From IMG/VR virus record IMGVR_UViG_3300037041_001930: 64,000 nucleotides of DNA; one strand, given 5' to 3'. Below, piece after piece: positions 23,741 to 61,988 of the stretch (within the stretch, counting starts at the first letter, position 1; each line of letters opens with the position of its first letter). Below the pieces are notes generated by a model. The model searched no databases and was not told where the DNA came from. It was given only the letters and a program-made list of their open reading frames with translations. Position numbers and translations under genes: made by a program. Origin of the DNA: a virus. Lineage: Duplodnaviria > Caudoviricetes.

Positions 23741-24214
23741 TCAGGGGGCCTGAATCAGGGCTTCCTGGGGTTCCCTGGCATCTTCAGTGGTTTCGACATC
23801 TGCGCTAGAGGCTGGATCCACCGCGGAGATGTCACCCTGTGAAGTCAGGGCGAGCTCGATGCCCTGGATGCGTGCCAGGTTGGCGTAGAAGTTGAGATTG
23901 ACTTGGAGAGGCCCGATAACACCGGGTTCCGGGATCCTGCCGTTCTTCTCGGCCCGGATCACGGAATCCCGGATATCGGCCTGACAGCGTCGGAGATGGC
24001 GGAGTAGGAACTCCTTGGTGTCCCCGACCTCAAAGAAGAGGTCGATGGCACCGCGTTGGATGTCCTGGCGCTGTGACATCGTCCTGATATTGCCCCGGTG
24101 GTCACCAACGAAGTGGTAGACCCCGGGTCCCAGAGTCCGGTTCGGCTTAATCCAGGTGAGTATAACTCTTGGATATTTAACTACAACAATGGTGTGTGCT
24201 ATTGACGTATTCAT
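23741..24214 (-). CDS. Hypothetical protein
   Basis: 157 aa; ATGA overlap with the upstream gene. Confidence 0.7.
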   Translation of the reverse strand: MNTSIAHTIVVVKYPRVILTWIKPNRTLGPGVYHFVGDHRGNIRTMSQRQDIQRGAIDLFFEVGDTKEFLLRHLRRCQADIRDSVIRAEKNGRIPEPGVIGPLQVNLNFYANLARIQGIELALTSQGDISAVDPASSADVETTEDAREPQEALIQAP

Positions 24215-24540
24215 TTTGCAGACTTCTTTGCAGCCTTGTGACGACTCGCCAACTTGGTCAACGCGATGTCGCCATCGAGGCGTCCTGGGCGAGGTGCCGC
24301 TGCCTTGAACTGGGCTGCTTGTTTTTCCAGGAATTTGTTTACAATTCCCGCCTTCTTCTCATTCTTAGCCTTCTTCGGACTCCCCATCGCAGGGGTGATG
24401 TTACCCTTGGCGTTGGTACTCGGCTGAGTAGGCTGCTCGGGTGGCGGCGGCGCATTGGTTCCACTCCGCGGTTTAACAGGGGTGGAAGTGTGGGCTGCAA
24501 TCTTCTGTGCAGCCCGGAAGAGTAATTCACGGGGTTTCAT
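24211..24540 (-). CDS. Small basic hypothetical protein
   Basis: Start re-assigned to ATG 24540 with GGAG RBS; Lys/Ala/Pro-rich; carries KIAA and KLAS motifs. Confidence 0.65.
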   Translation of the reverse strand: MKPRELLFRAAQKIAAHTSTPVKPRSGTNAPPPPEQPTQPSTNAKGNITPAMGSPKKAKNEKKAGIVNKFLEKQAAQFKAAAPRPGRLDGDIALTKLASRHKAAKKSAK

Positions 24541-24605
24541 GGGTGCTCCGATGCGATAGGATAGTCTTGGAAATCCCTCGAACAAGTCGGGGTAGGCAGG
24601 CTGCC

Positions 24606-24642
24606 AAAGAAGGACGCCACCCGGTTTCCCAGGTGGCGTCCT
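24606..24642 (-). terminator. Probable intrinsic terminator downstream of the major capsid gene
   Basis: Minus strand AGGACGCCACCTGG-GAAA-CCGGGTGGCGTCCT is a 14-bp stem (one G-U) with a GNRA loop (24611-24642), followed by a short TCTTT. Confidence 0.75.
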
Positions 24643-24670
24643 ATTACAATCTCAAATCCAACCTATCAGC

Positions 24671-25609
24671 TCAATTCTGCGAGATGGTCACCAGGGCGAC
24701 CGCAGCGGGGTTGGCGATGGTGGCGCCGCGTTCAGCGTACGCGAAGAATTCCAGGTTGTATGCGCGCTTGTCGACATACATCGTGGTGTCTTCGAGGACG
24801 TAGGACTTGCCCAGGAACTCCGGGGAAGCGAACACCCAGAAGCTGGATTCGGCGACGAGCTCGGTCTTGTTGGTAACGACCCAGTTGCAGCCGATCAGTT
24901 TCTTCTGTTGGAAGCCGTCGACCAACATGTCTTGCGACAAGTCGCCACCGGCTTCGTCACGGGTGAACTTACTGACGTCATGGATGGTGATGTTGTTGAC
25001 CAGGATGGTCACGCCGTCCAAGTGGGCGAAAGTACGTGGCAGGATCTTTTTGATCTCGAACAACGAGTTACGGGTGATGCCCGCGGGATCAACGAACTTG
25101 ACGTTTTGGACGATGCCGGTTTCAGGAACGATACCGCCCTGAGGTCCCACGATGGCTTGGCAAGCCGACAGCATCTTGCGGTCGAACTCGAAATCCATGT
25201 CGAGGATGGCGTTGTCCGAGATGACCTGGCGGATGTCCATACCGTAGGTACGGAGTTCCGAGGTATCCTTCGTGAACTTATGGGTCACGATACGATCGAA
25301 GTAGACCGGGTAACGGTCACCACGGAAGTAGTATTGGATGGGCTGCTGACCCAGGGGGATCGTGATAGCAGCGGGTGAGTTGGGTTCGCGTTCAACCAGC
25401 TTGACGTTCTTGTCATTGCTGAGTTGTGGGGTGAGTTCGTCATCCCCAATCTTGATCGCTGGCAGAATCTTCTCGAAGAACGAGGATTCACGGATGCGAA
25501 CGCGGGTGAAATCGGTCACCATGTCCGCTGCGGCTTTGATATGACCCTTTTCGAGCATACCGAAGAATGCAGCATTGGACTGGGCCGCGGACAGCTTTTT
25601 CTGACTCAT
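24671..25609 (-). CDS. Major capsid protein (HK97-fold type)
   Basis: 312 aa. RIRESSFFEKIL, YPVYFDRIVTHKFTKDTSEL..YGMDIRQVISDNAILDMDFEFDRKML and C-terminal FFAYAERGATIANPAAVALV match the HK97-type MCP pattern. Canonical order protease-scaffold-decoration-MCP-terminator; strong AAGGA RBS. Confidence 0.85.
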   Translation of the reverse strand: MSQKKLSAAQSNAAFFGMLEKGHIKAAADMVTDFTRVRIRESSFFEKILPAIKIGDDELTPQLSNDKNVKLVEREPNSPAAITIPLGQQPIQYYFRGDRYPVYFDRIVTHKFTKDTSELRTYGMDIRQVISDNAILDMDFEFDRKMLSACQAIVGPQGGIVPETGIVQNVKFVDPAGITRNSLFEIKKILPRTFAHLDGVTILVNNITIHDVSKFTRDEAGGDLSQDMLVDGFQQKKLIGCNWVVTNKTELVAESSFWVFASPEFLGKSYVLEDTTMYVDKRAYNLEFFAYAERGATIANPAAVALVTISQN

Positions 25610-26324: not shown

Positions 26325-26762
26325 TCAGTTACCCGAAGGGATGTGCTGACGAGCATGACGATCCCAAACCGCATCTGAACACTCGGCTTGGGCTTCAGGA
26401 TCCTCGACAACGCTGGCCACTTTGGTGGCCCGGCTTGCGACTTCAGCAAACTTGTGCAGTGCCGTGACAGCCTTGGAGTGATCCATGACTTCGTTGGCAA
26501 AGGCTTCTGCGCGTTCGGGACTCGAGATCATGCCGGATTGCAACAGGGTTGCAGCGGCGCGCTTGGCGAGTCCACGCAGATTTGCCACCTTGGCCTGGTC
26601 GGCTTCGCTGGCGGTCTTTTGCGTTTTCTGCGCTGCGGCGAGTTCGGCCTTGAGGGCTGTATTCTCCGCGGCTTGTTTTTGGATGATACCCTGGGCTTGT
26701 TCCAGGGTGGAGGCGAGACCATCAATAGTGCTCGCAACTTTCTTGAGCTCGTTGCCAGTCAT
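26325..26762 (-). CDS. Coiled-coil scaffold-like head protein with 7 KxA motifs
   Basis: Start re-assigned to ATG 26762. Heptad-rich; KVAS, KQAA, KTAS, KVAN, KRAA, KFAE, KVAS. Confidence 0.7.
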   Translation of the reverse strand: MTGNELKKVASTIDGLASTLEQAQGIIQKQAAENTALKAELAAAQKTQKTASEADQAKVANLRGLAKRAAATLLQSGMISSPERAEAFANEVMDHSKAVTALHKFAEVASRATKVASVVEDPEAQAECSDAVWDRHARQHIPSGN

Positions 26763-26766: not shown

Positions 26767-28302
26767 TCAGGCTTTCTTGTTGGTGGAGGTTTGCGCGATT
26801 TGGAGAGCAGCTGCCTTCTTGAAGATCGCTGCGCTGACACGAGCCTTGTAACTCGCGACTTTGTCCATCGCGGGCACCGGGGCTGCGCGGAGGTTGGCGA
26901 GTTCCTGGGGATCGATGCCCATTTCCTGGAGAACTTGCATCAGAGCTGCTTGTTCCTCAGGAGTCTTGGCTTCGAGGCCAGCCAGGGGGTCACCGTTAAT
27001 CGGGGAGCCCGTGGGGGCTGCACCAGGGATACCAGCGGCGGGATCACCACCGGGGATACCTGCGGCAGCGGCGGCGGGATCACCACCGGGGATACCGGCT
27101 TCTTCACCACCAGGGAGATGTTCGGCGTTTTCTTGGGCAGGGGATTCGCCTTGCTCGTGCGCAGCAGAGTCGCCTTCCTTCTTGCCTTCTTCAGCCTTCG
27201 CGCCTTCGGAGCCCTCGTGGCCTTCGCCTTCACCGGCTTCATGCCGTGCGGCTTCTTCGAGTTCTTGAGCAGTCTTGATAGCCAAATTGAAACCAAAAGT
27301 GTGCGCGGCTTTGTGGAGCGTGCGCAGCTTCTGGGGGTAATCGGGATGACCGGGGCCGACATCCAATGCAGCCACTTTCATGGCCTGGAGGTCTTCAGGA
27401 GGCAGTTCACCGCCGGCGTCGCCGCCAGGGGGAAGTGCACCAGCGGGACCAGCGCCACCCATGGCATCAGCAGGGGGAGCCCCGGCGTCGCCACCAGGAG
27501 GAGCTCCAGCAGCGGCGGGATCACCACCAGCACCGGCGGCTCCACCCATCTGTTCACTCAAGGCTTGGAGTTCTTGGAGGTCCTCAGGGGACAATGCACC
27601 GCTACGGGCGGCTTCCTGAAGGATCTGTGCGGCTTGCTCGTCGTCGATCTCACCGTTCTGCAGGGCTTGCATGAGCTCTTGAGCCCCGGCTTGCGCTGCG
27701 CCTTGTTCGCCACCAGGGATGGCTTCGCCGCCTGCGGCTTCCATCGCCTTTTTGGCGATGTATGCGCTCATGCCGGTCAGGGGCTTGGCGGCTTCAGGCT
27801 GACCGTTGGATTTTCCCAGGATACTGGCGACTTTCTGTTGGGCCGCAGCTGCGTTGGCATCAACCGGTGCTTTTTCAGCAGCCGATTTCAGATACGCGGA
27901 AATCTTGCGTCCAGTCGAGATGAGTTCAGCAGCGGACTTCGAGAGTTCACTTTGGGGTACGGGACCATTGTCGGCTTCACCTTTGACTTCGAGATCGGCA
28001 CCCTTGCCGCCCTCTTGGCCATCAGTGGACACCGCGGTGGCACCCTCTGTGGAGGCTTCCACGCTTGCGCCGGGCTTGTTGGCTTCGGCGCCGCCGTCGA
28101 CTTTGGCTGCGGTATGCTTACCGGCCTCCTCGACGTTCTTGTTGTAGTGTTCACCTTTTTTAACGGCTTCAGTGCCGTTATCGCTGTCCAGGGGATCAGC
28201 GGGGCTCGCGGCTTTGCGGAGACCTTCGGTGGGAACTTCGGAGGCGCGTTTGATCATGAGGTCGAGATCCTCCATGATCGTGCGCTGTGTCTTTTGAGTC
28301 AT
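26767..28302 (-). CDS. Probable capsid scaffold/internal head protein, low complexity, KxA-rich
   Basis: 511 aa, Ala/Gly/Glu/Pro-rich, directly after the protease; about ten K-x-A motifs. Confidence 0.7.
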   Translation of the reverse strand: MTQKTQRTIMEDLDLMIKRASEVPTEGLRKAASPADPLDSDNGTEAVKKGEHYNKNVEEAGKHTAAKVDGGAEANKPGASVEASTEGATAVSTDGQEGGKGADLEVKGEADNGPVPQSELSKSAAELISTGRKISAYLKSAAEKAPVDANAAAAQQKVASILGKSNGQPEAAKPLTGMSAYIAKKAMEAAGGEAIPGGEQGAAQAGAQELMQALQNGEIDDEQAAQILQEAARSGALSPEDLQELQALSEQMGGAAGAGGDPAAAGAPPGGDAGAPPADAMGGAGPAGALPPGGDAGGELPPEDLQAMKVAALDVGPGHPDYPQKLRTLHKAAHTFGFNLAIKTAQELEEAARHEAGEGEGHEGSEGAKAEEGKKEGDSAAHEQGESPAQENAEHLPGGEEAGIPGGDPAAAAAGIPGGDPAAGIPGAAPTGSPINGDPLAGLEAKTPEEQAALMQVLQEMGIDPQELANLRAAPVPAMDKVASYKARVSAAIFKKAAALQIAQTSTNKKA

Positions 28303-28304: not shown

Positions 28305-29705
28305 CTACTTCCTTGGTGACAAGGGTGATGGTAACGGGGTTGCGCGCCTCGACAAGGCCATGCCCTGAACGAGGGCTCCGAGCGTGGCTTCATCTGCGTT
28401 GTTATTGGGATGCACGGCGAAAGCTACTTTGTAGTGGAGATAGAGGTCGGCAAGACCCCTACTCGCCGTGACATCAGGAGCACGACCAGCACCGGCCAAC
28501 TTCACATTCGGCTGACCGGAGATTGTGGCGTGGAGAACCCGACGACTCGGGTGGTCTCCGCGCATCGATGTCGCGTAATCCAGGGAGCCCACGACCTCGT
28601 CCTCGAGACGAATTGGGGTCGTGGATTCAGCGCCATCTAAAGAGTTGATTTCGATAGCAGATTTCAAGAGGCCATGAAAGCCTTGTTTAACAGCGAGATC
28701 ATGTGCCAGGTGAACATCTGGAGAGATCGATGCCATCGGGATCTCGACGACAAAGTCTGCGAAGTCCCGGATACTGAGGACACACCCACGCTTGTGGAGC
28801 CAGTTCAGCATCGAGGGGGCACCATGGGCCTCAAACGCCTTCTTGATCTCCTTGCGGGTCTCGAGATCGAGATCCTTGGGTTCTGGACCAATATCGGCGA
28901 GCTGGGCGAGACCGCCGATTCGCTTCTCGATGGTGGCCAGCCGCATCATCATCGCATACTTCGATGAGTTCAGTTTCCGCATCGAGGTCTGCAGGGCAGC
29001 CTCGAAACCAGGGACTCCTGGTCGCTCTAGTGCCACCTTCCGCAGAGTATAACCAATGCGGTCAGCGGGTTTCCATACCGTGGACTGGTCCATGTAGTAC
29101 GGATTCGGATTCTGCATGTAAACTTTTTGCCCATCCTTGGTGACTTCACCAAGCATGTGCTTGACGTGTTCGCAGTGATCCTTGGCCTCAGGTGCCTTGT
29201 GGCCACACACTGAACAGACGTCATAGGCCTGCATGGATCCCATGGATACCGGGACATCCTTGCCTTCTTCGAGAGCCTGGACCTCGTCAGCATTCTTTTC
29301 ATTGTCGAGTGCTGAGAGAAGCTCGATTCTCGACATGGGTCCGTTGTGACCCGTGAACAGGATGTCGCCCGTCTTCTTATCGGGGTCATCGTTGTCATGG
29401 TTCTTGAAGACATGACCATGAGTCTTAAATCTGGTATGACAAGTCTTGTTGTCTTTCTCGCTGAAGCCATCGTTGTTACGATTATCCCCGTAGCGTTCCT
29501 CGTCACCCACTGCGATGGTATGGATGATGGTCTTCCCTGGGATCGGCTTCATCTCGGCGAGTTCCTTCTGGAACAGGAGACCGCCGGCCTCCTTCGCCGT
29601 CTTCATGAACAGCTCTTTGTCGAACCCATGACTCGAGAATCTCACCAGGGTTACCTCAGGGGCCTGGAAGTCGTAGGTGTGCGGAGAAAGAATCTTGGCA
29701 ATCAT
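28305..29705 (-). CDS. Prohead (capsid maturation) serine protease, HK97-gp4/assemblin-like fold, with Zn-finger insert
   Basis: Start re-assigned to ATG 29705, after the upstream TAATAA. Motifs NRNNDGF, VFKNH (putative catalytic His), VSMGS (putative catalytic Ser), CSVCG...HCEH, DQSTVWKPAD; position upstream of scaffold and MCP. Confidence 0.8.
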   Translation of the reverse strand: MIAKILSPHTYDFQAPEVTLVRFSSHGFDKELFMKTAKEAGGLLFQKELAEMKPIPGKTIIHTIAVGDEERYGDNRNNDGFSEKDNKTCHTRFKTHGHVFKNHDNDDPDKKTGDILFTGHNGPMSRIELLSALDNEKNADEVQALEEGKDVPVSMGSMQAYDVCSVCGHKAPEAKDHCEHVKHMLGEVTKDGQKVYMQNPNPYYMDQSTVWKPADRIGYTLRKVALERPGVPGFEAALQTSMRKLNSSKYAMMMRLATIEKRIGGLAQLADIGPEPKDLDLETRKEIKKAFEAHGAPSMLNWLHKRGCVLSIRDFADFVVEIPMASISPDVHLAHDLAVKQGFHGLLKSAIEINSLDGAESTTPIRLEDEVVGSLDYATSMRGDHPSRRVLHATISGQPNVKLAGAGRAPDVTASRGLADLYLHYKVAFAVHPNNNADEATLGALVQGMALSRRATPLPSPLSPRK

Positions 29706-29709: not shown

Positions 29710-30954
29710 TTACTTGCCCCATATCTTCTCACCCAGCATGGATGCCCCGGATCCCATGAAGCCATACCCGAGTGCGCGTGCTGCGACTCCACCAAGTGTT
29801 GGCTTGGTACTAATGCGTTGAGCACCCGCGATACCATGGGGGACCCCAACGATGTTGACTACCCTGGACCCCAGACCAGACGTAAACCCCTCACGGAGTC
29901 TATGAGCCGCTTGCTCCTGCGCGGAGAGTGCCTGGTGCTTTGTGATATCCGGCGTGTTCGCATTGAAGTCAAGTTTACGTTGACCTGAATCCGCGAAGCC
30001 CACCAGTTTCTCCGCATTGGCTTGTTGAATCGCCAAGTTGGGATCACTGTTGTTACCGAAGACTCGTTTGAGGATTGACTGCTTACTGGGGTCCGGAGTC
30101 ATCGGGCCCTTCGCGGTGCCCTGATTCACGGCGTTGACCAATTCTTTGTTATCAAACAAGTCTTTGTTGTTCAGGATTGCCAGGGGGTGACTGGGATTGA
30201 CCATAGAACCCGCGGCGAACGTGTGTACCGCATTTCCGGCTTCAAGGGGAGCACGTGGCCCCTTGTCACCCTCGAGTCCTGCTGCGGTGCCCATAGCACG
30301 CAGATGGGGCTCTGCGGCTTCACCGCCCTGATTGAGTTTGTTGATGAGACCGCCAGTGGTCTGGATACCATGATCGGGGCCACCCGGCAGTTTCTTCAGC
30401 GCAGGTACAGTGCCATGGAGGACCCCAAGACCAGCACCTAAACCAAAAGCACCAGTTCCAGTGGGGGTGTTGTCCTGCAACCACGCACTCATCTTCTCAC
30501 GGGAGTCCCCGAAGATGCGACCACCAAGAGCCTTGTCGATTTCTTTGCGGTACACGTAGGCGGCGCCAAGACCAGCGGCGAGACCACCACTGGCCAAGGC
30601 CAGGGTCAACCATTCCTTGGCACCCCAGCCCTTGTCGTCCTCCTCGTCCTCGGAGTCATCCGAGACGGGATACACGGCTTCAGCGGCACACTTGATAGCT
30701 ATGTCTGCAACGTTGTACGCTGTCCTCCCCGCTGACGCATAGTCATCTGCACGCCAGTCCTTCATGTCACGTGTTTTCCAGAAATCGGGGTCGGTTACCT
30801 TACCCATAACATTGGAAACCATACCCTTACTGCTACGCCTTTTTTTGGGACTAGCGTGATTCGTTTTACTACGTGTACAGTCACCGTCTGAATCGGGGTA
30901 AACCTCTTCAGCGGCCTGCTTTGCAAAGGCGTCGTGGTCAGCATGGGTTACCAT
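29710..30954 (-). CDS. Glycine-zipper, probably membrane-associating head protein
   Basis: KQAA and KCAA motifs, acidic run, then WLTLALASGGLAAGLGAAYVY; further GAFGLGAGLG and ALGYGFMGSG segments. Confidence 0.7.
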   Translation of the reverse strand: MVTHADHDAFAKQAAEEVYPDSDGDCTRSKTNHASPKKRRSSKGMVSNVMGKVTDPDFWKTRDMKDWRADDYASAGRTAYNVADIAIKCAAEAVYPVSDDSEDEEDDKGWGAKEWLTLALASGGLAAGLGAAYVYRKEIDKALGGRIFGDSREKMSAWLQDNTPTGTGAFGLGAGLGVLHGTVPALKKLPGGPDHGIQTTGGLINKLNQGGEAAEPHLRAMGTAAGLEGDKGPRAPLEAGNAVHTFAAGSMVNPSHPLAILNNKDLFDNKELVNAVNQGTAKGPMTPDPSKQSILKRVFGNNSDPNLAIQQANAEKLVGFADSGQRKLDFNANTPDITKHQALSAQEQAAHRLREGFTSGLGSRVVNIVGVPHGIAGAQRISTKPTLGGVAARALGYGFMGSGASMLGEKIWGK

Positions 30955-30956: not shown

Positions 30957-32456
30957 TCAGCCCTTCGCGTGATGTTTCTGGAGTTTCAAGAGGACATCGG
31001 TGTCGAGGTCACCGCCACTGGCGAGCTGATCCTTGACGAGTCGGCGGATCATGGAGGCATCGGCATCGGGATTCGCGGCCATGACAGCATTGAAGGCTTT
31101 AACAGTTTCTGGGATCGGGCGCTGGGCGATATAGGGGTCATCCATGAGCCCGGCCAGGGAAACCGCAGCACCCGTGTTCTTGACCCGCTGTTGACCTCCG
31201 GAACCCAGAGGAGACTTGGGGGTCACCCCGTAATCCGGGGATTCGCCGCTACCACGGCTACCCATGGCACCACCAATGACATCTTCGATGGCTTCGCCAC
31301 CCATGGCAGCCTGGGGCAGCGTTGCCGCGGTATCCGAGAGATCCTTGACGTAGCCGCCGGCATCACCGGCGATCTTGGCAATCCAGGGGCCGGCTTCGGC
31401 GAGCCTGCGGTCGACTTCATTCTTGGCGGCCAAACAGTGCGAGGCGTGTTTCCACAAAGTCTCCAGCGTCGAGACTGAGTCGACGACTGCTTTCTCTTGT
31501 GGGGTGCATGTCGCGATGACGTCGCCAGCGATCTTCATCGCCGGGGTCGCCCTGTGGTGCCCACGGTTCTCGAGACCACCGGTGACCCAGATGACATCCA
31601 GGGTTGCGGGGTCGACACCAGCACGTTTCGCCAGGGTCTCCACACGGGAGAACGCTGGGGAATCAATGCGGGCAAAGGACTCCACGATTCGAGCCAGTTT
31701 AACGAAGGCGGCGTCGCGGTGTTCAGAGAACTTGGTTCTCGCGGCTTCCGCGGCAGCCTTCATGTTCTGAAGTTTGATAAAGGGGTTGTCGGCGAGGCGG
31801 GAGCAGTCGATGCCATGAAGCCCGGAGTCCAGGGCTTCCCGGATCCGTGCGGCTTCCATACCGAAATCAGCGCTGACCCCGACTCCATTGATATCGCATG
31901 CAATCTTGGTGCGACCACGGCGAAGTGCCATGGGGTCGCTGCCAAAGACTTCACGCGCAGTCTTGAAGAGTTCGGCGTCTTCGGCCTCGGCTTCGTCATC
32001 ACTGATGACGTCCTTGAAGTCGCCATCCTCTTTGTAGGACTCATCGACTTCTTCGGCGTCGGCTTTACCCGAGCTCTCAGATGCCGTCTTCTTGGCACCC
32101 GGCAACTTGTTCGGGGATTCGACGTCAGGGTAGTCCCCTGGTTTCGTACCATTCGCTGGCTTCTTGTCTTCAGCATCGGGTTCCGGGAATAACTCCTGGG
32201 TGACTTCATCCGCATTGGTCAACGGAAAGGGATCCGCTTTGGCCTCGGCTTCTGAGTTCGCGAGATGACTGAGGGTGCGTGAGTTATTGACGGCATGGCT
32301 GACCAAGGCGACCTCTTTAGCATTGAGGTCGAACTCCTGGGCTGCCTTGCGGAGTGCTGCATTGGGTGCAGCGCCATCGTTCATGCAGTCAACACAGGCC
32401 TCGGCAGCTTTGATAAGAATGGCGTGACGCCGGGGTCCCATGAGTTCAAGGCTCAT
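30957..32456 (-). CDS. Hypothetical head protein, KxA-rich
   Basis: 499 aa; KAAE, KAAQ, KTAS, KTAR, KIAC, KAAA, KIAG x2; ATGA coupling. Confidence 0.75.
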   Translation of the reverse strand: MSLELMGPRRHAILIKAAEACVDCMNDGAAPNAALRKAAQEFDLNAKEVALVSHAVNNSRTLSHLANSEAEAKADPFPLTNADEVTQELFPEPDAEDKKPANGTKPGDYPDVESPNKLPGAKKTASESSGKADAEEVDESYKEDGDFKDVISDDEAEAEDAELFKTAREVFGSDPMALRRGRTKIACDINGVGVSADFGMEAARIREALDSGLHGIDCSRLADNPFIKLQNMKAAAEAARTKFSEHRDAAFVKLARIVESFARIDSPAFSRVETLAKRAGVDPATLDVIWVTGGLENRGHHRATPAMKIAGDVIATCTPQEKAVVDSVSTLETLWKHASHCLAAKNEVDRRLAEAGPWIAKIAGDAGGYVKDLSDTAATLPQAAMGGEAIEDVIGGAMGSRGSGESPDYGVTPKSPLGSGGQQRVKNTGAAVSLAGLMDDPYIAQRPIPETVKAFNAVMAANPDADASMIRRLVKDQLASGGDLDTDVLLKLQKHHAKG

Positions 32457-33388: not shown

Positions 33389-33592
33389 TTACTTCTGGGC
33401 GGCCTGAGCAGCGGCGAAGGCATCGAGCTTGGCATGGGCAACCTTGGCGAGGCCATGGACCTGCTCATCGCTGAGGCCCATACCACGTGCGGCTTCATAG
33501 AAGCCGAGATCGACAGCATTGGCACCGTCGACTTGATCAGCGGCAGCCAACTTTTTCAAGGTGACTTCTTCAGCGGTCTTGGATAACGACAT
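33389..33592 (-). CDS. Small (67 aa) KxA-motif protein
   Basis: Start re-assigned to ATG 33592 with AAGGAATCCACC RBS; MSLSKTAEEVTLKKLAAAD. Confidence 0.7.
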   Translation of the reverse strand: MSLSKTAEEVTLKKLAAADQVDGANAVDLGFYEAARGMGLSDEQVHGLAKVAHAKLDAFAAAQAAQK

Positions 33593-46657: not shown

Positions 46658-46659
46658 GG

Positions 46660-47862: not shown

Positions 47863-48591
47863 TCAGAACCTCATGGATTGTTTGGGGGCCGTGCGCTTGG
47901 CAAGAATAGATGACAAAATCTTATTCGTGCGCTGTGACTTCAACTGATCCGCTTTCTGCTCTAGGAGTCGCTTCTCAACCATGACACGCTCGATGTCTTC
48001 ATCAGTGGCGTCTTCCCCAAAGATATGCCCCATTGTGGTCCCCGCGGTACCATAGAGCCCAGCGGACGCCGAGGTCACACCTTTGATCGGTGCGGTGACC
48101 AGAGTGGGGTCCACGAGAAACGAGGCGGCTTCCTTGACGTGACCAGTCTTACAGAACCCGGGGTGATCGATGAGCCCAGAGGCCCGGGCACCCTCGAGGT
48201 ACCCAAGTCTGACCGCGTTGCGGACGTCCCGCTCAATCGCGAGTTTAATGAGTTCTGCCGGCTTCATTTTTGCTGTCTCCATTCCAGTTTTCATATTGAG
48301 TAGCGTCCCCAACCCAGCCCCAATGGTCTTCATTGTCGACGCCGTGGAATCGCTGACCCCCAGCCACTTCGCCGCGAGGGCACCGATGCCGAGGCCGACG
48401 CCGGCGCCCAGGGCACCCTGGACGACCTGAGTAGGCGTGATCCAGGGTTTGGCTGCCGGCTGCTGAGCTGCGGCACGATCAATGATCTCAATGCTCTTCA
48501 CCTTGTCCCAAAGATTCAAGGATGGGTCAGTGAAGACCCTGTCCTTGGCATCGCTCACCGCGATCATAGCCGCTGCGGATTCCATAGTCAT
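47863..48591 (-). CDS. Glycine-zipper head protein
   Basis: GALGAGVGLGIGALAAKWLG and IGAGLGTLL; KEAA motif; ATGA overlap. Confidence 0.75.
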   Translation of the reverse strand: MTMESAAAMIAVSDAKDRVFTDPSLNLWDKVKSIEIIDRAAAQQPAAKPWITPTQVVQGALGAGVGLGIGALAAKWLGVSDSTASTMKTIGAGLGTLLNMKTGMETAKMKPAELIKLAIERDVRNAVRLGYLEGARASGLIDHPGFCKTGHVKEAASFLVDPTLVTAPIKGVTSASAGLYGTAGTTMGHIFGEDATDEDIERVMVEKRLLEQKADQLKSQRTNKILSSILAKRTAPKQSMRF

Positions 48592-54293: not shown

Positions 54294-56161
54294 TGGGGAG
54301 CTCCGCCACCAGGGGCCTGACCTCCCTGCCCACCCTGGAGAAGCATTTGCTGGCCCTGTGACGAGGCCTGCTGACGTATTTCATCCAGCTTGGCCTTGAC
54401 GAGGCCATGGAGATCTTTGTTGCCTTCGCGAAGCGCCTTGAGCTGCTGCTTGCGGTCGTACTCGGGCATCCCGGCTAATTGACCCGCGATCTGCTCGGCC
54501 TGGGAAGCCATGCCGCCCAGGGTACTCGCATTTGCGCCGCCACCTGCGGGGAGTCCCCCCATAGGAGATCCACCCATGGGCATACCAGGAGGTGGAGGTG
54601 CACCGGCACCGCCTTGCTGCTGGGCCTGCTGTTGCTGCAGCATCGCCGAGGGGCTCTGGGCTCCGGCGAGGGCACTGACAGCTCCCATCTCCTGATCCTT
54701 GACCGCCTTGTCGTCCTGCTCCTTCTGGAGCTCCTGGATAAACTCTTGATGCTTGAAGACTTTCCTGGCCTCGTCGCCGGCGAGGACACCCAGGGGTTCC
54801 AGCGCGGTCTGAGGACTGATCTGATTCGCAGCCATGAGCTGCATGAGAATGTTCTTGCGTTCCTGGTCGTCAGCAATGGTACTCCGCTGAATCCGGACAT
54901 CGGTTTCCTCGAGACCAAAGTTGCGTGCGGCAACTTTAACGATCCATTGCAGGATCGAGGTGTACATCGCGGGCACCGCAGACCACGCGGACTCAAACAG
55001 ACGCAGGGCCATCGGAGCCGCCTGTGCTGTCAGTGTCATCTGGTGGTACTCAAGTGGGACATTGCACTGGTTCAAGGATTCCTGCTGACGGAACTTCAAC
55101 TTGTCCGCGGGGAGGAGATCCTTGCCCTCACCACCCAGGAACTGGTAGTTCACGGGGTACGGTGCGGTGTGGTAAGACATGGGTTCAGCGCGATGTGCAT
55201 TGATGATACGATTCATACCACCAACGAAGTTGTCCATGCCATGCTGGATCATGGGGTCGTTCTGATTCGCCATTGCTGGAGAAATCAAACGGAGGCCCAG
55301 GGTGTAGTCCGATGCAATGGCTTGGTCGGCACGGTTCAGGATCTGCTGCAACCAGAATGTCCGGAAGTTGGAGATCGAGGCGGGGACACCCCAGCCACGA
55401 GTCCGCATCCCCGAGATCACGGGTTCATCGACGTGGTAAATCATGTCCTCGTCGAAGAGGAGACGACCATTAACCGCGACGGCCTCGAGGACCTCGATGG
55501 GAGTGTCATCAATGAAGATGCGGGCCTTCGACATGATGTCTTGACGGAAGTCGTTGGGGATCCTCCACCAAATGTTCTTGCGCTGGGACCAGAAGTTCTG
55601 GGCGAGCTCGATCTCGAAGGGGGAGTACCGGAGGACACGGATCCGGGAGATATCGGGATCCTTGCGATCCCGGAGCACGAAGTCCTGGGTATTCCCACAG
55701 GAAGGGCATGGCTTCTTGCGGAGCCAGCGGACCCCTCGCTGAGAAGTCAGATCAATGGTGTAATCGACATGCTTGATGGGCTGCTCGAAGTAGCAGTGTG
55801 GGCATGACAGGTTACGCTTGAATGGTAAGTATATGGACAGGAAGCAGTTACCATAACATAGGAAATCGGATCCTGCCGCCTTTAGCTCGCGGCTATAGTT
55901 GAGATGCTTCTGGAAGAGATCCTTGAACTCGGACTCCTCATTCTCGGAGAGTGCCGGGAATTGAACATTGGTAATGAAATGTGCGATGACACGCCCGAAA
56001 GCAGAACGATAGTTGCCATCGGTGAGCCAGAGGTACTGGGCCCACCACATGATGAGCTCATGGTTAGTGGGCATCACCGTGGAGGCATAGTCGAGCCAGG
56101 GGACATGGAGTTGACGTACGGCCTGGCCGCGATCCCCACCATTGACATTGAGATTCGCCAT
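54290..56161 (-). CDS. Portal protein with Zn-finger insert and Q/G/P-rich C-terminal tail
   Basis: GSDFLCYGNCFLS, IRVLRYSPFEIE, IYHVDEP..GWGVP, QILNRADQAIA, NVPLEY and coiled-coil segments follow the generic portal layout; CPHC...CPSC insert; first gene of the head module. Confidence 0.75.
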   Translation of the reverse strand: MANLNVNGGDRGQAVRQLHVPWLDYASTVMPTNHELIMWWAQYLWLTDGNYRSAFGRVIAHFITNVQFPALSENEESEFKDLFQKHLNYSRELKAAGSDFLCYGNCFLSIYLPFKRNLSCPHCYFEQPIKHVDYTIDLTSQRGVRWLRKKPCPSCGNTQDFVLRDRKDPDISRIRVLRYSPFEIELAQNFWSQRKNIWWRIPNDFRQDIMSKARIFIDDTPIEVLEAVAVNGRLLFDEDMIYHVDEPVISGMRTRGWGVPASISNFRTFWLQQILNRADQAIASDYTLGLRLISPAMANQNDPMIQHGMDNFVGGMNRIINAHRAEPMSYHTAPYPVNYQFLGGEGKDLLPADKLKFRQQESLNQCNVPLEYHQMTLTAQAAPMALRLFESAWSAVPAMYTSILQWIVKVAARNFGLEETDVRIQRSTIADDQERKNILMQLMAANQISPQTALEPLGVLAGDEARKVFKHQEFIQELQKEQDDKAVKDQEMGAVSALAGAQSPSAMLQQQQAQQQGGAGAPPPPGMPMGGSPMGGLPAGGGANASTLGGMASQAEQIAGQLAGMPEYDRKQQLKALREGNKDLHGLVKAKLDEIRQQASSQGQQMLLQGGQGGQAPGGGAPQ

Positions 56162-57350: not shown

Positions 57351-58214
57351 TCACTGAGCGTCAAGCCCTGCTATGTAGCCGTCGAGGTCGCTGCCATTGA
57401 TCTCGGTGAGTAAAACACGCTCCCAGAGCACACGGACTCCATTGAGATTCCGCTTGGCTTCTGGGGTGTCACCCTCGAGGTCGGCATAGGGAACGAAGGC
57501 ATCAAGGGTGCCCGGATCAGTCTCCTGTGTCGAGACTATCCAGTTGTGGTTCCCTGCCGTATTGGTGTCGAAAGGATGCAACAGTGTGAAGTCCGCGAAG
57601 AGGAGGCTGCGAGGTGCCACCCCAGCGGCGACGAGATCCTGGAGCATGGTCTTCATGGGGTCAATGTTGGGGCGACCAATGATATTGATCCAGATGTTCC
57701 GAGTAATCGCGGCACAGGCCTTGAAGAAGGCGACCTGATCCCCGGTGATCAGAGACTTGCCATCATAGGCGTCGTGGAGGATAAAATCGTAGGGGTAATT
57801 GTCACGCGGGCTCCCCGCGATGAGGGGGATCATGGCGAGGGCATCAGCGGTGAATACCCGAAGACGGCCGGACTCGATGGCAGCATTGACCTCAGGGAAT
57901 CCTTGCTTGCACAAATGGACTGCCACGGGGTCAATTTCGATGACATCGATGCGGACCCCAGGGAAGTTGGTGAGCACGGCGACGGCACCGGCACCACTGC
58001 CGAGACCAATCATGAGACCTCTCCCCCTTGGGTTCATCGCTGCGGCGGCAAGCCACCCCAGGGTGTACGGGGATGCCGAGACGACACCGGGGCCGCCGTG
58101 CTTAGACGGGGGATCCAGGAACGCGGCACCCTGGACCTGCCCATTGATTCGGAGCTGGCGTGCGCCATTGACGTCGATGACATCGACGACGCCGAACATA
58201 CCCGGGGCCATCAT
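57351..58214 (-). CDS. Spermidine-synthase-like / class I SAM-dependent transferase
   Basis: RQLRINGQVQG, GLMIGLGSGAG, IDVIEIDP, VFTADAL, YDFILHDAYDG. Confidence 0.8.
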   Translation of the reverse strand: MMAPGMFGVVDVIDVNGARQLRINGQVQGAAFLDPPSKHGGPGVVSASPYTLGWLAAAAMNPRGRGLMIGLGSGAGAVAVLTNFPGVRIDVIEIDPVAVHLCKQGFPEVNAAIESGRLRVFTADALAMIPLIAGSPRDNYPYDFILHDAYDGKSLITGDQVAFFKACAAITRNIWINIIGRPNIDPMKTMLQDLVAAGVAPRSLLFADFTLLHPFDTNTAGNHNWIVSTQETDPGTLDAFVPYADLEGDTPEAKRNLNGVRVLWERVLLTEINGSDLDGYIAGLDAQ

Positions 58215-59158
58215 GCCGACTGCAACTCAGGATGGGTATGGTCAGCAGGGGCGTACTTCCGACGTAGTTTAGTGGGTCTGACATCCCCACTGTAGGGGTC
58301 ATCAGATGACCGACGTTTCTTTGTAGACTCCACAGGACGATTAGACATTTTGTATAAGAGATACAATAGTCCAGCAGTGGCTACACCAGCAGTACCCAGG
58401 ACAAGAGGTGATGTCAAAGTTTTAACAGCATCGCCCATGTTTTCGACACCACGTGATGTCCGCTCACCAGTGGCGGCTACATCTTTAGAAAGTTGTTCAA
58501 CATTCTTCGCCGTATTTGCCGTACTTGTCAAGCCTTCAACAACTGGTTTATTTGATTCCTCGATGAGTTTCTTGGAGGCTCCAGCTGCCCCCTCGAAAGC
58601 ATTGGCTGCACTACTAATTGACTTCGCAGATCTAGCGGCTTCCAACCCAAGACCAATTCCAGCTTTAACACCGATATTCTTCATGATTGCGTCAGTTCCA
58701 GCCCTTGATTTCAAGGGGTCAAGAATGGCAAGCGCACGCTGGGGATTCGCAGATGAAATCTCGAGCTGTCCCCCCTTCGTAGTGGGGTGATCAATCCGCA
58801 TCGTAAATGCCCCTGGATTTTTGGGGTCTGGTGACCAGATATTAGATTTAGATAGATCGGGTTGTCCTTTACCTGCTTTTAAGGCATCTTGGAGTTCGCT
58901 GTGTCCAGCGTGTAAGTGGCCCCCACGCATTGCGTGTCGCTGCCCCTTCGTAGTCGCCAGTGCCCCTATCGCAGAGAAAGTTGCGGCTTGCAGTGGATCG
59001 ATGGGTTGTCCACGAATCTTATCAATGGCAATGGGAATGGTGCCACCAGCTACACCTGTGGCCACTGGCCAAATGATGTCACGGAGTGCCGCCGCCGCCT
59101 CCTTTTGCATGGCCACTTTACGAGTGAGATAAAACAACATGATCTGTGCTGGGCTCAT
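58211..59158 (-). CDS. Glycine-zipper/TM protein with N-terminal KVA/KEAA leader
   Basis: MSPAQIMLFYLTRKVAMQKEAAAA; hydrophobic segments incl. LVLGTAGVATAGLLYLLY; AT-richer than neighbours; ATGA overlaps at both ends. Confidence 0.75.
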   Translation of the reverse strand: MSPAQIMLFYLTRKVAMQKEAAAALRDIIWPVATGVAGGTIPIAIDKIRGQPIDPLQAATFSAIGALATTKGQRHAMRGGHLHAGHSELQDALKAGKGQPDLSKSNIWSPDPKNPGAFTMRIDHPTTKGGQLEISSANPQRALAILDPLKSRAGTDAIMKNIGVKAGIGLGLEAARSAKSISSAANAFEGAAGASKKLIEESNKPVVEGLTSTANTAKNVEQLSKDVAATGERTSRGVENMGDAVKTLTSPLVLGTAGVATAGLLYLLYKMSNRPVESTKKRRSSDDPYSGDVRPTKLRRKYAPADHTHPELQSA

Positions 59159-61245
59159 ATCTGGGGCTCCTGTGCAGACGTTTGTAGCGGTGCTTCGGCT
59201 ACTGCCTCTGGGTTCTGGATCTCGGGGGTCTCCGGCTTCACCGCCTTCGACCTCCGAATCGCACGGTGGATCACCCTCGCCCTGGCACGATCAAGATTAC
59301 GGAATGGCTTATTGATGGCTAGACCCATGGACCCGTAGACCTGCTTGAGGACCTGGTCATGGGGGATCCACTCACCGGGGAAATCCGCGGGTGCCTCGCC
59401 TTCACCGAGATGAAAGGCGTAGTCGTAGCCGTGGTACCCAGGCTCCGGCGCCCCTTCATCAGGGATCACGCGGACGTTGGACGAGTAGGGGGCTGGGGCC
59501 CCCTTACCCTCAGTCGGGAAATGAAATCGACGGTTGCTGTCACGTCGAACCAATACTTTACCTTCGGGATCCAAATAGACGTACTCAGTTTTAGGAAGCA
59601 GCGCGGCAGCATCTGCCTGCTTCTTCAGTGGCATCTCGGTGTGCGTGGCCAGGACGTCCTCACCGACCCCGCCTGTGAAAAACTCTTTCTCATCGAAGTA
59701 GGTGACCCCAGCGGTCTCTGCGGCGTCATGATCGTCATCGGTGTTGCCAACCATGCAGATCACGGGATCCAAGGAGAACGCTTCCTCGGCGTATTCGAGC
59801 ATCGCCGGCGAGGGTTTCCTACCCGCATCGTCTTCATCGGTGCAGAACACGATGTCGTCGATCTCAGGCAGGAGCTCAAGGGTCTCGTCATTGAAGTCGA
59901 GGACATCAGCTAGGGTGCTCGTCCCCATGACACTGCGATTCGTGACCCCGATGATGCGGACCCCCGCTGCCTTAAACTTCTTCAGGAGTTCCTTGACCCC
60001 AGGCTGTATCTTCTGAGTAGCATCGATGCCGGCGTCGTCATCCCATTCGGCGACCACGGTGCCATCGAGATCAACGAGGAGCCCAGGCGCCGTCGATGGT
60101 GTCTTGTCCTGGAACTTCTGGGTGCGCATGGATCCCGAGATCTCAGCGGCATGCTTCTCGGCGAGAGTATTGGTGTGCTTGGCCATCGTGAAATCCCCGT
60201 TGGTCGGGGAGTCCCCGCTGCGGAGGACAAGGAGAACCCGGCCATCCGGGAATCTCCGGACTTCATCGAAGTAGTGGCCATGGGCGGCCTCGAGGTCCTG
60301 GAGGGCCTTCACGAAGACCTTGGGGTCCTTGGGCGCATAGATACGGCGAAGACTATTGCGGTACAGTGCCCAGCCGTGGTGCTGACGCGGAACACTGGCC
60401 AGCTTCTTGCCCTTGAGTTCGGGATCCTTCTTCGCCATGCCCCTGGCGGCCTCGACGAGTTCGAGGCGGACCTCGTTGGCCCTCTTGGCCCAGTCGTTCT
60501 TGGCTACGAGTTCTTTGAGACGGGAGATCAGCGTGGCGAAGGGGATCACATCGAAGTCCTCCCGATCCGGGTGTGTGGTCCCCAGCTTGCCGTCATGGAC
60601 TCCAGTGAAGAAGTAGGTTCGTTCACCGTCGAATGCGGAGTCGTCCCAGAAGTCGTTGACCCCCTGGGGCCAAATCGACTCCACGATCTCACGGGTCTCC
60701 GGGGAGATGATCTTGAGATCGGCTTCCTCAATGGCCTCCCGAATCGCGGCGAGCAATGGGGGTTCGCCATCGTCGATGCCACCCCCGGGGAACAGGATGT
60801 AGTCTCCCTTGTCGATGCCGACGACTCCATCCTTGTCGAACGCGACGATCTCGGATCTCGGCCTCAGGAGCTGGCTCGGGGAGCCCTCGTGTTTATCCGG
60901 TGTGGGTTCATTCTCGGCGGCACGCTTGCCCAGCCCTCTGGCGAAGCTGTGATCCCTGCGTTGTCTTGCCAAGGCGGCCTCATCGGGCGCGACATCCTTG
61001 GGCTTCGCCGGCATCATCTTTGTCGCATTGGTCCAGATCTTCGCTGCTGGAGACGGCAGGCTGTGGTCCTCGGATGTCCCCCTGCAGTCACCGCCACTGA
61101 AGAGTTCAAGAAAGGTTTTGCCCTCGACCATGTGGGCATTCGTGGCTTTAACAGGATTCCCACCCGTTGGCGTCGCCACAGGTGTGTTGGTTACGGGGCG
61201 ATCACTGCCCCGGCCTGGAGATGGAATCTTGGTCTCCGCACGCAT
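59155..61245 (-). CDS. Multi-domain protein: Nudix hydrolase, PCD/PhhB-like domain, HAD-IIIA phosphatase, degenerate Nudix-like domain
   Basis: Nudix box GGIDDGEPPLLAAIREAIEEADL; PCD-like GWALYRNSLRRIY...HGHY...VLLVLRSGD..TNGDFTMAK; HAD motifs DLDGT, VTN, RKPSPAML, VGNTDDD; last domain VYLDPEGKVLVRR....FHFP. Confidence 0.85.
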   Translation of the reverse strand: MRAETKIPSPGRGSDRPVTNTPVATPTGGNPVKATNAHMVEGKTFLELFSGGDCRGTSEDHSLPSPAAKIWTNATKMMPAKPKDVAPDEAALARQRRDHSFARGLGKRAAENEPTPDKHEGSPSQLLRPRSEIVAFDKDGVVGIDKGDYILFPGGGIDDGEPPLLAAIREAIEEADLKIISPETREIVESIWPQGVNDFWDDSAFDGERTYFFTGVHDGKLGTTHPDREDFDVIPFATLISRLKELVAKNDWAKRANEVRLELVEAARGMAKKDPELKGKKLASVPRQHHGWALYRNSLRRIYAPKDPKVFVKALQDLEAAHGHYFDEVRRFPDGRVLLVLRSGDSPTNGDFTMAKHTNTLAEKHAAEISGSMRTQKFQDKTPSTAPGLLVDLDGTVVAEWDDDAGIDATQKIQPGVKELLKKFKAAGVRIIGVTNRSVMGTSTLADVLDFNDETLELLPEIDDIVFCTDEDDAGRKPSPAMLEYAEEAFSLDPVICMVGNTDDDHDAAETAGVTYFDEKEFFTGGVGEDVLATHTEMPLKKQADAAALLPKTEYVYLDPEGKVLVRRDSNRRFHFPTEGKGAPAPYSSNVRVIPDEGAPEPGYHGYDYAFHLGEGEAPADFPGEWIPHDQVLKQVYGSMGLAINKPFRNLDRARARVIHRAIRRSKAVKPETPEIQNPEAVAEAPLQTSAQEPQI

Positions 61246-61988
61246 CAGATACCCCCGAGATACCGGATCGCATAGGCGCCGAGACGCCGGAGTTCCACTG
61301 CTGTCTTGGGGAGATTGGGGCCCATGCCATAGCTGGCGCCCGTGGACTGTGTTGGCGGGCTCCCGGGCTGCCCACTCGCCGTGGAGGTCATGGGTTGGGC
61401 TTGGGCGACACCACCGGAACCGATACCAGGAGTGGACCCCTGGGCTCCACTGACCTGACCACCTCCAGCGGGGATGATGGTCTTTGAGCGATGCTGGGGG
61501 TCCACGGCGAGATCGCCGGGACCCTGGTTCTTCTGGATCCCCACGCCACCCGGTGCGGGCATCCTGCTCACATTGGGGGTCGAGGATGCCGTATTGGAGA
61601 CTGACATCGATGTGTTCGGCAGCCTGCCACCAGCCATCGCCTTCTTTTCCAACTTCTCGGATTCCGTATAATACTTTGGATTCTTGGCGAGGTGGTCGAT
61701 GGAGATTTCTTTACGTGCCTCGAGGTTGGGGGTGTGCTCACCCTCTTCCTTGATCCCCTTGATGAGTTCCTTGACACTGAGCTTGCCATGCCTTGGTGTC
61801 TGCCCCCCGAGGATGGCAGCTGCGACCTTGCCAACACCTAACCCCAGGAATGCCGCCTCTTTCTTCCAGTTCTCCGGTTTACGCCCCTGCTTGTTGGCAG
61901 TAGCGTAGAACACACGCTCAGCCTTTTCCTTACTGTAGGTGTCTCGCATGGAATTAAGAACTTTCTTGGCATCCCCGACGATAGGCAT
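61245..61988 (-). CDS. Basic protein with a DUF5661-like domain and a low-complexity tail
   Basis: ELIKGIKEEGEHT..LEARKEISIDHLAKNPKYYT matches my recollection of DUF5661; N-terminal KKVLNSMRDTYSKEKAERVFYATANKQG module; TGATG overlap. Confidence 0.7.
   Translation of the reverse strand: MPIVGDAKKVLNSMRDTYSKEKAERVFYATANKQGRKPENWKKEAAFLGLGVGKVAAAILGGQTPRHGKLSVKELIKGIKEEGEHTPNLEARKEISIDHLAKNPKYYTESEKLEKKAMAGGRLPNTSMSVSNTASSTPNVSRMPAPGGVGIQKNQGPGDLAVDPQHRSKTIIPAGGGQVSGAQGSTPGIGSGGVAQAQPMTSTASGQPGSPPTQSTGASYGMGPNLPKTAVELRRLGAYAIRYLGGI

Follow-up and report, generated by a model that had tools for sequence, protein, structure and literature searches.

The question raised by the stretch of viral DNA analysed here (64,000 nucleotides, IMG/VR record IMGVR_UViG_3300037041_001930, referred to below as the window) is why the proteins of its head module carry so many copies of a short pattern, Lys-x-Ala followed by a small residue, and whether this pattern is a by-product of composition or a signal read by the phage's own prohead protease, as an initial annotation of the DNA had proposed. 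The phage carrying the window is uncultured and has a genome of roughly 216 kb. Every gene of the window is on the minus strand. Collagen-like fibres and tail or neck proteins come from positions 1-24214, and the head module, with 26 proteins, from positions 24211-61988. In minus-strand order this module contains the prohead protease (28305-29705), a scaffold-like protein (26767-28302) and the major capsid protein (MCP; 24671-25609), an order also found in 80 related loci; the protease gene adjoins the scaffold and major capsid genes, as is characteristic of assemblin-like enzymes. Our analysis makes it very probable that a longer pattern, hydrophobic-x-Lys-x-Ala-(Ser/Ala/Gly)-(Glu/Asp), is the recognition code of this serine protease.

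As a whole-genome control we used a sister contig (G001, IMGVR_UViG_3300032236_001859), a complete genome of 216,043 bp with terminal repeats, in which 199 genes were called from codon usage. The window corresponds to ~102-168.5 kb of the sister genome, at 80-92% DNA identity. Among cultured phages Salmonella phage Arash (OQ632216) is the closest, with 27% identity in the MCP (gp226) and 32% in the protease (gp222). Four start codons were reassigned using ribosome-binding sites and homologues.

Excess of the motif in head proteins

Counting the pattern K.A[ASG], in which a dot stands for any residue, we found 67 sites in 21 of the 26 head-module proteins, compared with 27.7 expected from whole-protein shuffles (z 7.6; 0 of 1000 shuffles reached 67). 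When the shuffles were confined to blocks of 40, 20 or 10 residues the expectation was still about 28, and local richness in Lys and Ala is therefore not the explanation. Neighbouring motifs used as controls were flat in the same proteins (A.K 1.12x, KA 1.02x, R.A 0.97x, K.S 0.77x and K.G 0.85x), so that the signal requires Lys and Ala at exactly this spacing. The excess is real: the claim of the initial annotation that the motif runs throughout the module holds against a composition-matched background, and Lys/Ala composition is ruled out as its source. The motif had also been described as scarce in the fibre and neck proteins, and these do have a single K.A[ASG] site; with 3.9 expected, the difference is not significant, and the scarcity follows mostly from their low Lys content.

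The position of the sites is likewise nonrandom. K.A occurs within the first 20 residues of 11 of the 26 proteins, compared with 4.3 in shuffles (11 was reached by 1 of 2000), in agreement with the description of motifs following short N-terminal leaders, and the strings quoted for it are all present: the leaders MRLPCVISKTAA, MRPTRLLALCLTKTAA and MVTHADHDAFAKQAA, the start MSLSKTA, read from an internal ATG at 33592, and KAAA at residue 25 of the MCP. Comparison of the window with the sister genome shows 61 of 70 motif sites (K.A.E or K.A-small) retained, as opposed to 427 of 596 Lys pairs taken as a control (p 0.003).

Shape of the signal

An unbiased scan was made of all three-position patterns within six residues, with 4193 patterns (those seen at least six times) tested. 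The top-ranked patterns in the window were K.A.E (33 against 5.1 expected, p 2e-16), then L.K.A (34 against 7.1) and then K.AA, and the best-ranked pair was K...E. Numbering the Lys as 0, flank tests showed Glu to be the only residue enriched at +4 once K.A is fixed, Ala the only one within K.x.E and Lys the only one within x.A.E; the small residue at +3 and the Glu at +4 contribute independently. L.K.A.E was seen 10 times against 0.4 expected, and the 38 sites in the window that read K.[ASG].E all lie inside the head module. It follows from the scan ranking that the signal in the window is longer than the K-x-A-small first described, which had left out a hydrophobic position at -2 and an acidic one at +4: the pattern reads hydrophobic-x-Lys-x-Ala-(small)-Glu/acidic.

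Glu-type codes showed no such enrichment in the head proteins (L.E, 61 against 50.5, 1.21x; I.E, 33 against 30.2, 1.09x; S.E 0.92x; G.E 0.78x). A.E stood at 1.24x, and x.A.E was about 1.0x for every x but Lys, so the A.E excess comes entirely from K.A.E. A T4-type or phiKZ-type Glu code as the primary signal was rejected because those motifs are not enriched.

Genome-wide control and relatives

In the sister genome the excess is limited to the head module (K.A[ASG], 49 against 25; K.A.E, 25 against 5.1) and one outlying plus-strand gene, 73308-75038 (13 against 1.5). The non-virion region at 1-60 kb has 11 K.A[ASG] sites against 22.5 expected and 6 K.A.E sites against 6.1. The former is an under-representation (Poisson p 0.006), which could reflect either avoidance of the motif or a general bias of the proteome. 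That genome has only about ten genes on the plus strand, of which the outlying one lies about 55 kb from the head module and encodes 576 residues, with 17 K.A in the first 390 and a Pro/Gly/Ala-rich tail; from its sites, its product is likely to be a substrate of the protease.

A profile search of IMG/VR with 24 protease homologues returned 233 relatives, of which the best 80 loci were analysed. Except for two near-identical ones, these have 28-45% protease identity to the window; their GC content spans 33-68% and the contigs reach 235 kb. Within 10 kb of the protease gene, the top three-position motif was a K.A pattern in most of the 80 (L.K.A, EK.A, K.AA, K.AS, K.A.E or K.A.D), the exceptions being dominated by collagen-like or Pro/Ser/Asp/Met-rich low-complexity repeats. 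Pooling the 41 non-redundant loci (<=70% protease identity) gave 2648 K.A against 1396 expected, with the information limited to seven positions, -2 to +4 around the Lys. The preferences were L/F/M at -2, E/V/T at -1, Q/T/V/E and not G/P/D at +1, S/A/E and not W/L/I/P at +3, and D/E/A at +4. Lys-x-Ala is thus the family-wide core, and Glu at +4 a preference of the clade to which the window belongs. Nine family proteins start M-x-K-x-A and none starts M-K-x-A; leaders are heterogeneous and, in relatives, as short as M-x-K-x-A, which suggests that the motif itself, and not the leader, holds the information. The C-terminal ends of family proteins showed no pile-up at K-x-A-stop and give no clue to the bond.

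Both cultured relatives of the protease family agree. In the Arash head genes (gp1-17, gp204-228) the top motif is L.K.A (27 against 6.2), the sites reading L/M/I-(E)-K-x-A-S/A/G and being densest in gp220-gp225, around the protease. In the head module of Bacillus phage G (JN638751) K.AS tops the scan; the phage G MCP is without an N-terminal K-x-A site. More distantly, Mycobacterium phage Alice (L098, NC_028986) has in gp90 (42678-47213, 1511 aa) 19 K.A against 8.8, which is not a top motif of its module, and this phage was set aside as an ambiguous case; gp90 embeds a distant relative of the protease domain, and its gene stands directly upstream of that for the major head protein (cluster C mycobacteriophages).

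The same pair scan applied to T4 gp21, gp22, gp23 and gp24 gave ES, I.E and L.E as the top three pairs. As this returns the established L/I-x-Glu↓Ser code (the arrow marks the bond cut), enrichment of short motifs in head proteins is a valid read-out of a protease code. Full-text literature searches, which reached only a minority of the subscription journals, turned up no report of a Lys-x-Ala phage-protease motif; head-protein processing is not described in the Arash paper (PMC10585845) or in the phage G multi-omics paper, whose mass spectrometry (MS) search was fully tryptic.

The prohead protease

The product of 28305-29705 (minus strand, 466 aa; start at 29705 fixed by homologues of about 450 aa) matches the head maturation protease family phrog_18299 (E 1.9e-8). 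It consists of a catalytic domain at about residues 16-225, with the gp21/assemblin fold, a helical, scaffold-like middle and a conserved C-terminal helix. The AF2 (AlphaFold2) model, with a pLDDT of 80, matches T4 gp21 (5JBL) with Z 10.9 and a root mean square deviation of 3.0 Å over 139 of 164 residues, and the pseudorabies, herpes simplex virus (HSV), human cytomegalovirus (HCMV), Epstein-Barr virus (EBV) and Kaposi's sarcoma-associated herpesvirus (KSHV) proteases with Z 4.5-7.2, which indicates that the protein has the T4 gp21/herpesvirus-assemblin fold. NRN75-77, His103 and Ser154 are invariant in 24 homologues and collinear with NRN51, His85 and Ser140 of T4 gp21, the NRN-to-His-to-Ser spacing being 28/51 compared with 34/55 in T4. 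His103 and Ser154 are the predicted catalytic pair, and the enzyme is predicted to cut itself and other head proteins. Its homologues include phage G gp19 (32% identity, E 3e-18), as well as Arash gp222. Sequence searches gave no Pfam or NCBIfam protease family at E <0.01 or 0.1 and no PDB match, by single sequence or by profile, and comparison of the family profile with T4 gp21 by hhalign was not significant (probability 0.09). At the sequence level the family is therefore unclassified, outside the MEROPS S77 profile.

Three K-x-A sites of the enzyme stand out (all on the minus strand). The first, FMKTAKE (K35-x-A37, 29589..29609), lies upstream of the catalytic core; K35 is invariant and A37 at least 90% conserved in the 24-homologue alignment, and K.A is kept in 40 of 41 representatives (<=70% identity). 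The second, LRKVALE (K223-V-A225, 29025..29045), ends the catalytic domain and is followed by a linker (228-244) with pLDDT <50; its column reads K.A in 41 of 41 representatives, and phage G gp19 carries ILEKVAS at the aligned place. The third, NVKLAGA (K402-x-A404, 28488..28508), falls where the model briefly loses confidence (pLDDT <50 at residues 400-402 and 404-406), ahead of the C-terminal helix, with K402 at least 90% conserved in the 24 full-length homologues and found in 4 of 41 of a wider, poorly alignable set. A co-fold prediction of the protease domain with MCP residues 1-60 scored 0.01, which weighs neither way.

Apart from these sites, the protease has at residues 164-180 three invariant cysteines (Cys164, Cys167 and Cys178, in C-x-x-C ... 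H-C-x-H), a zinc-knuckle-like insert that comes just after the catalytic Ser strand and has no T4 gp21 counterpart. Intein domains are present in several protease homologues (P0019, P0043, P0051, P0053 and others).

Capsid and scaffold-like proteins

The MCP (24671..25609, minus strand, 312 aa) has the HK97 fold: the AF2 model (pLDDT 83.6, pTM 0.80) matches HK97 and many other phage capsids in Foldseek with probability 1.00 (HK97 capsid, E 8e-10), and the match to NCBIfam capsid_Caudo_2 (E 1.7e-6) is below the cut-off of that family. Its N-terminal site, HIKAAAD (K25-x-A27, 25523..25543), provides two of only 17 invariant columns in 29 MCPs, with identity down to 25%. K-x-A is kept at this position in 41 of 42 distinct aligned MCP N-terminal segments, including Arash LVKEAG, and in 36 of 37 representatives. 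In the model, the site is at the loop-to-helix junction before the helix of residues 24-42.

The scaffold-like, Ala/Lys-rich protein of 511 aa (26767..28302, minus strand, a frame that gene calling from codon usage in the sister genome confirms) has nine K-x-A-small sites against 2.7 expected, five of its sites reading K-x-A-x-E, which bears out the repetition in scaffolds that had been pointed out; K184, K309, K343, K481 and K495 are kept in five of five alignable homologues. Scaffold proteins carry up to 14 copies of K-x-A each. Two smaller minus-strand proteins are similarly dense. The 145-aa protein read from the ATG at 26762 (26325..26762) begins with the leader MTGNELKKVAS and has seven K.A sites, five of them K-x-A-small against 0.8 expected, with scores of 2.1-3.3 in a family position weight matrix (PWM) built from 41 other lineages. 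The Lys/Ala-rich protein of 109 aa (24211..24540, ATG at 24540 with GGAG) has five K-x-A-small sites against 0.76, and its LEKQAAQ is the second-best PWM site.

Proposed processing and the probable bond

If the protease cuts at the motif, it would cleave itself at K35, K223 and K402 during prohead assembly, freeing the catalytic domain from the scaffold-like tail. It would trim about 27 residues off the capsid protein, chop the Ala/Lys-rich scaffold proteins into pieces small enough to leave the capsid, remove short N-terminal leaders from internal head proteins and separate the domains of packaged multi-enzyme proteins. The sites flank the catalytic domain of the protease, occur close to the N-terminus of the MCP, crowd the scaffolds and terminate leaders, a placement typical of prohead-protease substrates. 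The motif is well supported as selected and linked to the protease, and the claim of a Lys-x-Ala code for this enzyme, distinct from those of T4 and phiKZ, agreed with every comparative test; that the motif is a cleavage site we infer. The packaging or targeting-propeptide role put forward in the initial annotation draws no support from the leaders, given their heterogeneity and shortness.

On balance we favour a motif that is cut, and cut after the Ala. The bond would then be Ala↓small, with a hydrophobic residue at P5, Lys at P3, a variable P2, Ala at P1, Ser/Ala/Gly at P1′ and an acidic residue at P2′. This assignment is preferred because the layout becomes the canonical P3-x-P1↓P1′ of T4 and of the herpesviruses (V/L-x-A↓S), the information then running from P5 to P2′; it is centred on Ala and +3, Gly, Pro and Asp being disfavoured at +1 and bulky residues at +3, and the alternate-residue spacing fits an extended strand and not a helix.

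Several observations weigh against cleavage after Ala. So far no member of the protease family has yielded an observed cleavage product. Chance alone accounts for about 96 of the 138 K.A sites, so that many single sites are non-functional and the some twenty head substrates of the initial annotation are an upper guess only. MCPs frequently carry Gln, Ile, Leu, Val or Glu directly behind the Ala, which is unusual for an enzyme strict for a small P1′. The Arash virion MS table gives 100% coverage for the K-x-A-rich gp221, gp223 and gp224, which at face value means that uncut sequence, or all its fragments, remain in virions; in the same table, however, 2 unique peptides are enough for a listed coverage of 100%. 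Finally, the bond could lie after the Glu, as Glu at +4 is the strongest flank in the clade and A-x-E is a known cut motif of phiKZ/SPN3US-type enzymes (PMC10052503).

Cleavage after the Lys, hydrophobic-x-Lys↓x-Ala, would amount to a charge-swapped T4 L/I-x-Glu↓ code with a hydrophobic P3 and Lys at P1. The L/M/F at -2 and the Lys at 0 match the T4 P3-x-P1 spacing, and the residue at -2 seems to be required, given that M-x-K-x-A is a recurrent protein start and M-K-x-A is never one. We consider it unlikely, however, since P1′ would be highly variable (Thr, Gln, Val, Glu, Arg, Leu) yet P2′ strictly Ala and P3′ small, which is an odd profile, and since the information is centred downstream of the Lys.

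A bond after the Glu of K-x-A-x-E would make the enzyme a phiKZ/SPN3US-type A-x-E↓ protease (P3 Ala, P1 Glu) with extra preferences for Lys at P5 and Leu at P7. Prohead-protease codes have been mapped experimentally for few phages (T4, phiKZ, 201phi2-1 and SPN3US), and all of these gp21-family enzymes cut after Glu (PMC5694885, PMC10052503). K.A.E is, moreover, the most enriched pattern of the window, only Glu stands out at +4, and the nonsignificant hhalign match places K-V-A-L-E of the window opposite K-E-I-T-E of T4 gp21. Yet the Glu is not conserved at the invariant sites (K35, K223 and K402 of the protease and K25 of the MCP, which mainly has Asp at +4), in Arash and the majority of the 80 relatives +3 is Ser/Ala and +4 varies, and A.E without the Lys is not enriched; strict P5 and P7 without any prime-side preference would also be unusual. 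Such a bond therefore strikes us as improbable.

It is also rather doubtful that K-x-A is bound but left uncut, as a docking or incorporation tag for the protease-scaffold core or for another head component. Such a role would suit the leaders M-x-K-x-A of relatives, MIGDLKGA of the RNA polymerase in the window and MPKSA in Arash, which alone are too short as targeting peptides, and also the Arash scaffold-like proteins reported in virions at high coverage. It does not readily explain why sites bracket the protease catalytic domain, in linkers, like the auto-processing sites of T4, phiKZ, SPN3US and the herpesviruses; the multiple copies per scaffold protein fit degradation better, and in T4 the same signature marks real cleavage sites. 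That the excess has no function and arises from the Lys/Ala-rich helical or low-complexity composition of scaffold-like proteins has almost nothing to commend it: several motif-rich proteins are indeed Ala/Lys-rich (A 0.16-0.22, K 0.07-0.14), and K...E has the i/i+4 spacing at which opposite charges pair as salt bridges in helices, but an artefact of this kind was rejected by the local shuffles (still about 28 with 10-residue blocks), the reversed and neighbouring motifs (A.K, KA and R.A not enriched) and the genome-wide control, the i, i+2, i+4 spacing is not helical, and the sites are invariant in the globular HK97-fold MCP and the protease and replicated across the whole GC range of the relatives.

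Other proteins of the head module

The remaining motif-bearing proteins of the module, all encoded on the minus strand, include several candidates for packaged cargo. The RNA polymerase of the virion module, in which beta is fused to beta'-N (42110..46657, 1515 aa), is recognized by Pfam Rpb2_6 (E 2e-40), Rpb2_3, Rpb1_1 and Rpb1_2; it begins MIGDLKGAF, with K6-x-A8 at 46628-46648. Its counterpart, Arash gp206 (1525 aa, annotated as RNA polymerase subunit beta), holds the corresponding place in its module and starts MPKSAS; gp206 is the most abundant virion protein by MS, and RNA polymerase is present inside virions (PMC10585845). The beta'-C subunit (35909..38959, 1016 aa; Pfam Rpb1_5 and LAGLIDADG_3) contains an intein-like LAGLIDADG/Hom_end insert of about 380 aa; the copy in the sister genome has 634 aa and is without the insert and its two K.A.E sites. 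In the sister genome it is the beta/beta'-N gene that is longer (1975 aa compared with 1515 aa), so that mobile intein-like inserts sit in different RNA polymerase genes of near-identical phages.

The multi-enzyme protein of 696 aa (59155..61245) has Pfam NUDIX (151-239) and HAD (390-516) domains, flanked by K107 (60913-60933), K254 (60472-60492), K364 (60142-60162) and K542 (59608-59628); the sites are kept in the copy of the sister genome, which is 93% identical. The initial annotation placed motifs exactly at domain boundaries, which fits these four sites as well as K223 and K402 of the protease; K425, inside the HAD domain, does not conform. Next to this gene, the first protein of the motif-bearing block (61245..61988, 247 aa) contains KEAA, KVAA and LPKTAVE, and the 315-aa protein (58211..59158) has a leader ending MQKEAAA (59090-59110; PWM 3.74), a site not kept in the diverged copy of the sister genome (39% identity). 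The adjoining product of 57351-58214 has a weak spermine/spermidine-synthase-like match, of methyltransferase fold (E 1.6e-4, just below the cut-off), and may be another packaged enzyme.

Short leaders are also found in the 338-aa protein (40080..41096; ATG with AGGA), with leader MRPTRLLALCLTKTAAE and a site at 41046-41066 that has the best PWM score, 4.52; in the 314-aa protein (41166..42110), whose leader, the first of those named above, has its site at 42072-42092; and in the 67-aa protein from the internal ATG (33389..33592), which begins MSLSKTAEE, with the ribosome-binding site AAGG 8 nt upstream and a PWM score of 3.37. Among the larger proteins, the conserved head protein of 750 aa (33627..35879) has seven K-x-A-small sites against 0.8 expected, the best being VVKLAAE (K226, 35190-35210), kept in 18 of 33 distant homologues, and LVKQAAS (K569, 34161-34181), kept in 22 of 33. 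The 499-aa protein (30957..32456) has six against 1.55, with LRKAAQE (K37, 32334-32354) kept in 20 of 21 distant homologues. The giant protein of 1901 aa (48588..54293) has TRKLAAN at K37 (54171-54191) and six more K-x-A-small sites, a total against 4.2 expected that is not significant alone. The probable portal (54290..56161, 623 aa) is identified by weak matches to SPP1_portal (E 0.0014) and to phrog_64 portal (E 3e-4).

The 414-aa protein (29710..30954) has an 11-residue leader with FAKQAAE (30907-30927) at its end; the motif recurs as AIKCAAE at 30679-30699. Residues 12-92 include a module of about 76 residues between the two K-x-A-A-E copies, each of which is then followed by (E/A)VYP.SD, and the copy in the sister genome is without exactly the stretch between the two motif copies (AFAKQ-AAEA); this looks like a duplication or deletion through recombination between the motif repeats.

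Outside the module, the fibre genes (1-24214, minus strand) are dominated by collagen-like G-x-x repeats (G..G, 380 against 177), with P.G and Q...G also enriched, and the fibre proteins of 994, 1442 and 1303 aa (3836-6820, 7886-12214 and 12237-16148) have similar N-termini, M-(A)-L-P-(I/V)-(Q/S)-N-(D/N).

Wider significance and comparison with known systems

We tentatively propose that at least 233 IMG/VR contigs, together with Arash and G, form a large clade of 100-235-kb phages, most of them uncultured, which shares an unclassified branch of assemblin-fold proteases that has switched from Glu at P1 to Lys-x-Ala↓small. The motif itself, in place of a longer propeptide, would be an address by which RNA polymerase, Nudix/HAD enzymes and other cargo, in the form of leader-tagged proteins or polyproteins, are loaded onto the protease-scaffold core, to be cut free inside the capsid. 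If this is true, a different family-wide code would mean that the specificity of the assemblin fold can be re-targeted; mature virion proteins, propeptides and polyprotein joints would become predictable from sequence in hundreds of uncultured large phages; and the motif would mark packaged and injected enzymes, here a multisubunit RNA polymerase and a Nudix/HAD protein. Arash and phage G are in culture, which makes the code testable, and LC-MS/MS (liquid chromatography-tandem MS) of Arash virions has been run (PMC10585845).

The window resembles T4, a phage with capsid targeting sequences whose gp21 belongs to MEROPS S77, in the fold of the protease, in the collinear NRN, His and Ser, in the position of the gene beside those for scaffold and MCP, and, as proposed here from the sites, in its targets: the enzyme itself, the MCP N-terminus, scaffolds and short leaders. 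Both codes have the P3-x-P1↓P1′ layout (L/I-x-E↓S in T4), detectable by the same statistics. They differ in that gp21 has 212 aa, compared with the 466 aa of the window enzyme with its scaffold-like C-terminal half and Cys cluster, and in that the T4 code is L/I-x-Glu, not Lys-x-Ala, with no match at the sequence level.

With phiKZ (gp175), 201phi2-1 and SPN3US (gp245), jumbo phages whose proteases cut at S/A/G-x-Glu↓ or A-x-Glu↓, the window shares a large phage genome, a virion-packaged multisubunit RNA polymerase, many internal head proteins and, as proposed, extensive head processing at short motifs, the motif of the window's clade often ending A-x-E. Auto-cleavage is known for gp21, gp175 and gp245 (PMC5694885), and in the phiKZ/SPN3US-type proteases it is C-terminal (PMC5694885, PMC10052503). 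In contrast to those phages, the window has a small MCP (312 aa, HK97-type) and a Pfam-recognizable beta/beta'-N fusion as RNA polymerase; in its family a Lys must stand two places ahead of the Ala, the Glu being dispensable, and S.E and G.E are not enriched. The Pfam phiKZ_IP match in the window scores 16.9 bits (E 0.0039), short of the cut-off of 27.

In herpesviruses assemblin (MEROPS S21) is part of a protease-scaffold fusion, which it cuts at two sites, R and M, reading (V/L/I)-x-Ala↓Ser. The window enzyme has the related fold, a proposed Ala at P1 with a small P1′, and a protease fused to a scaffold-like domain, in which K223 is placed like the R site and K402, before the conserved C-terminal tail, like the M site; it differs in being a phage enzyme whose cuts are predicted, with Lys and not a hydrophobic residue at P3 and the hydrophobic residue at P5. 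Closest of all are Arash and phage G, which have the same protease family and the same K-x-A enrichment in the head module, although the proteins are only 25-32% identical and the form preferred in Arash is L/M-E-K-x-A-S/A, with no marked Glu at +4.

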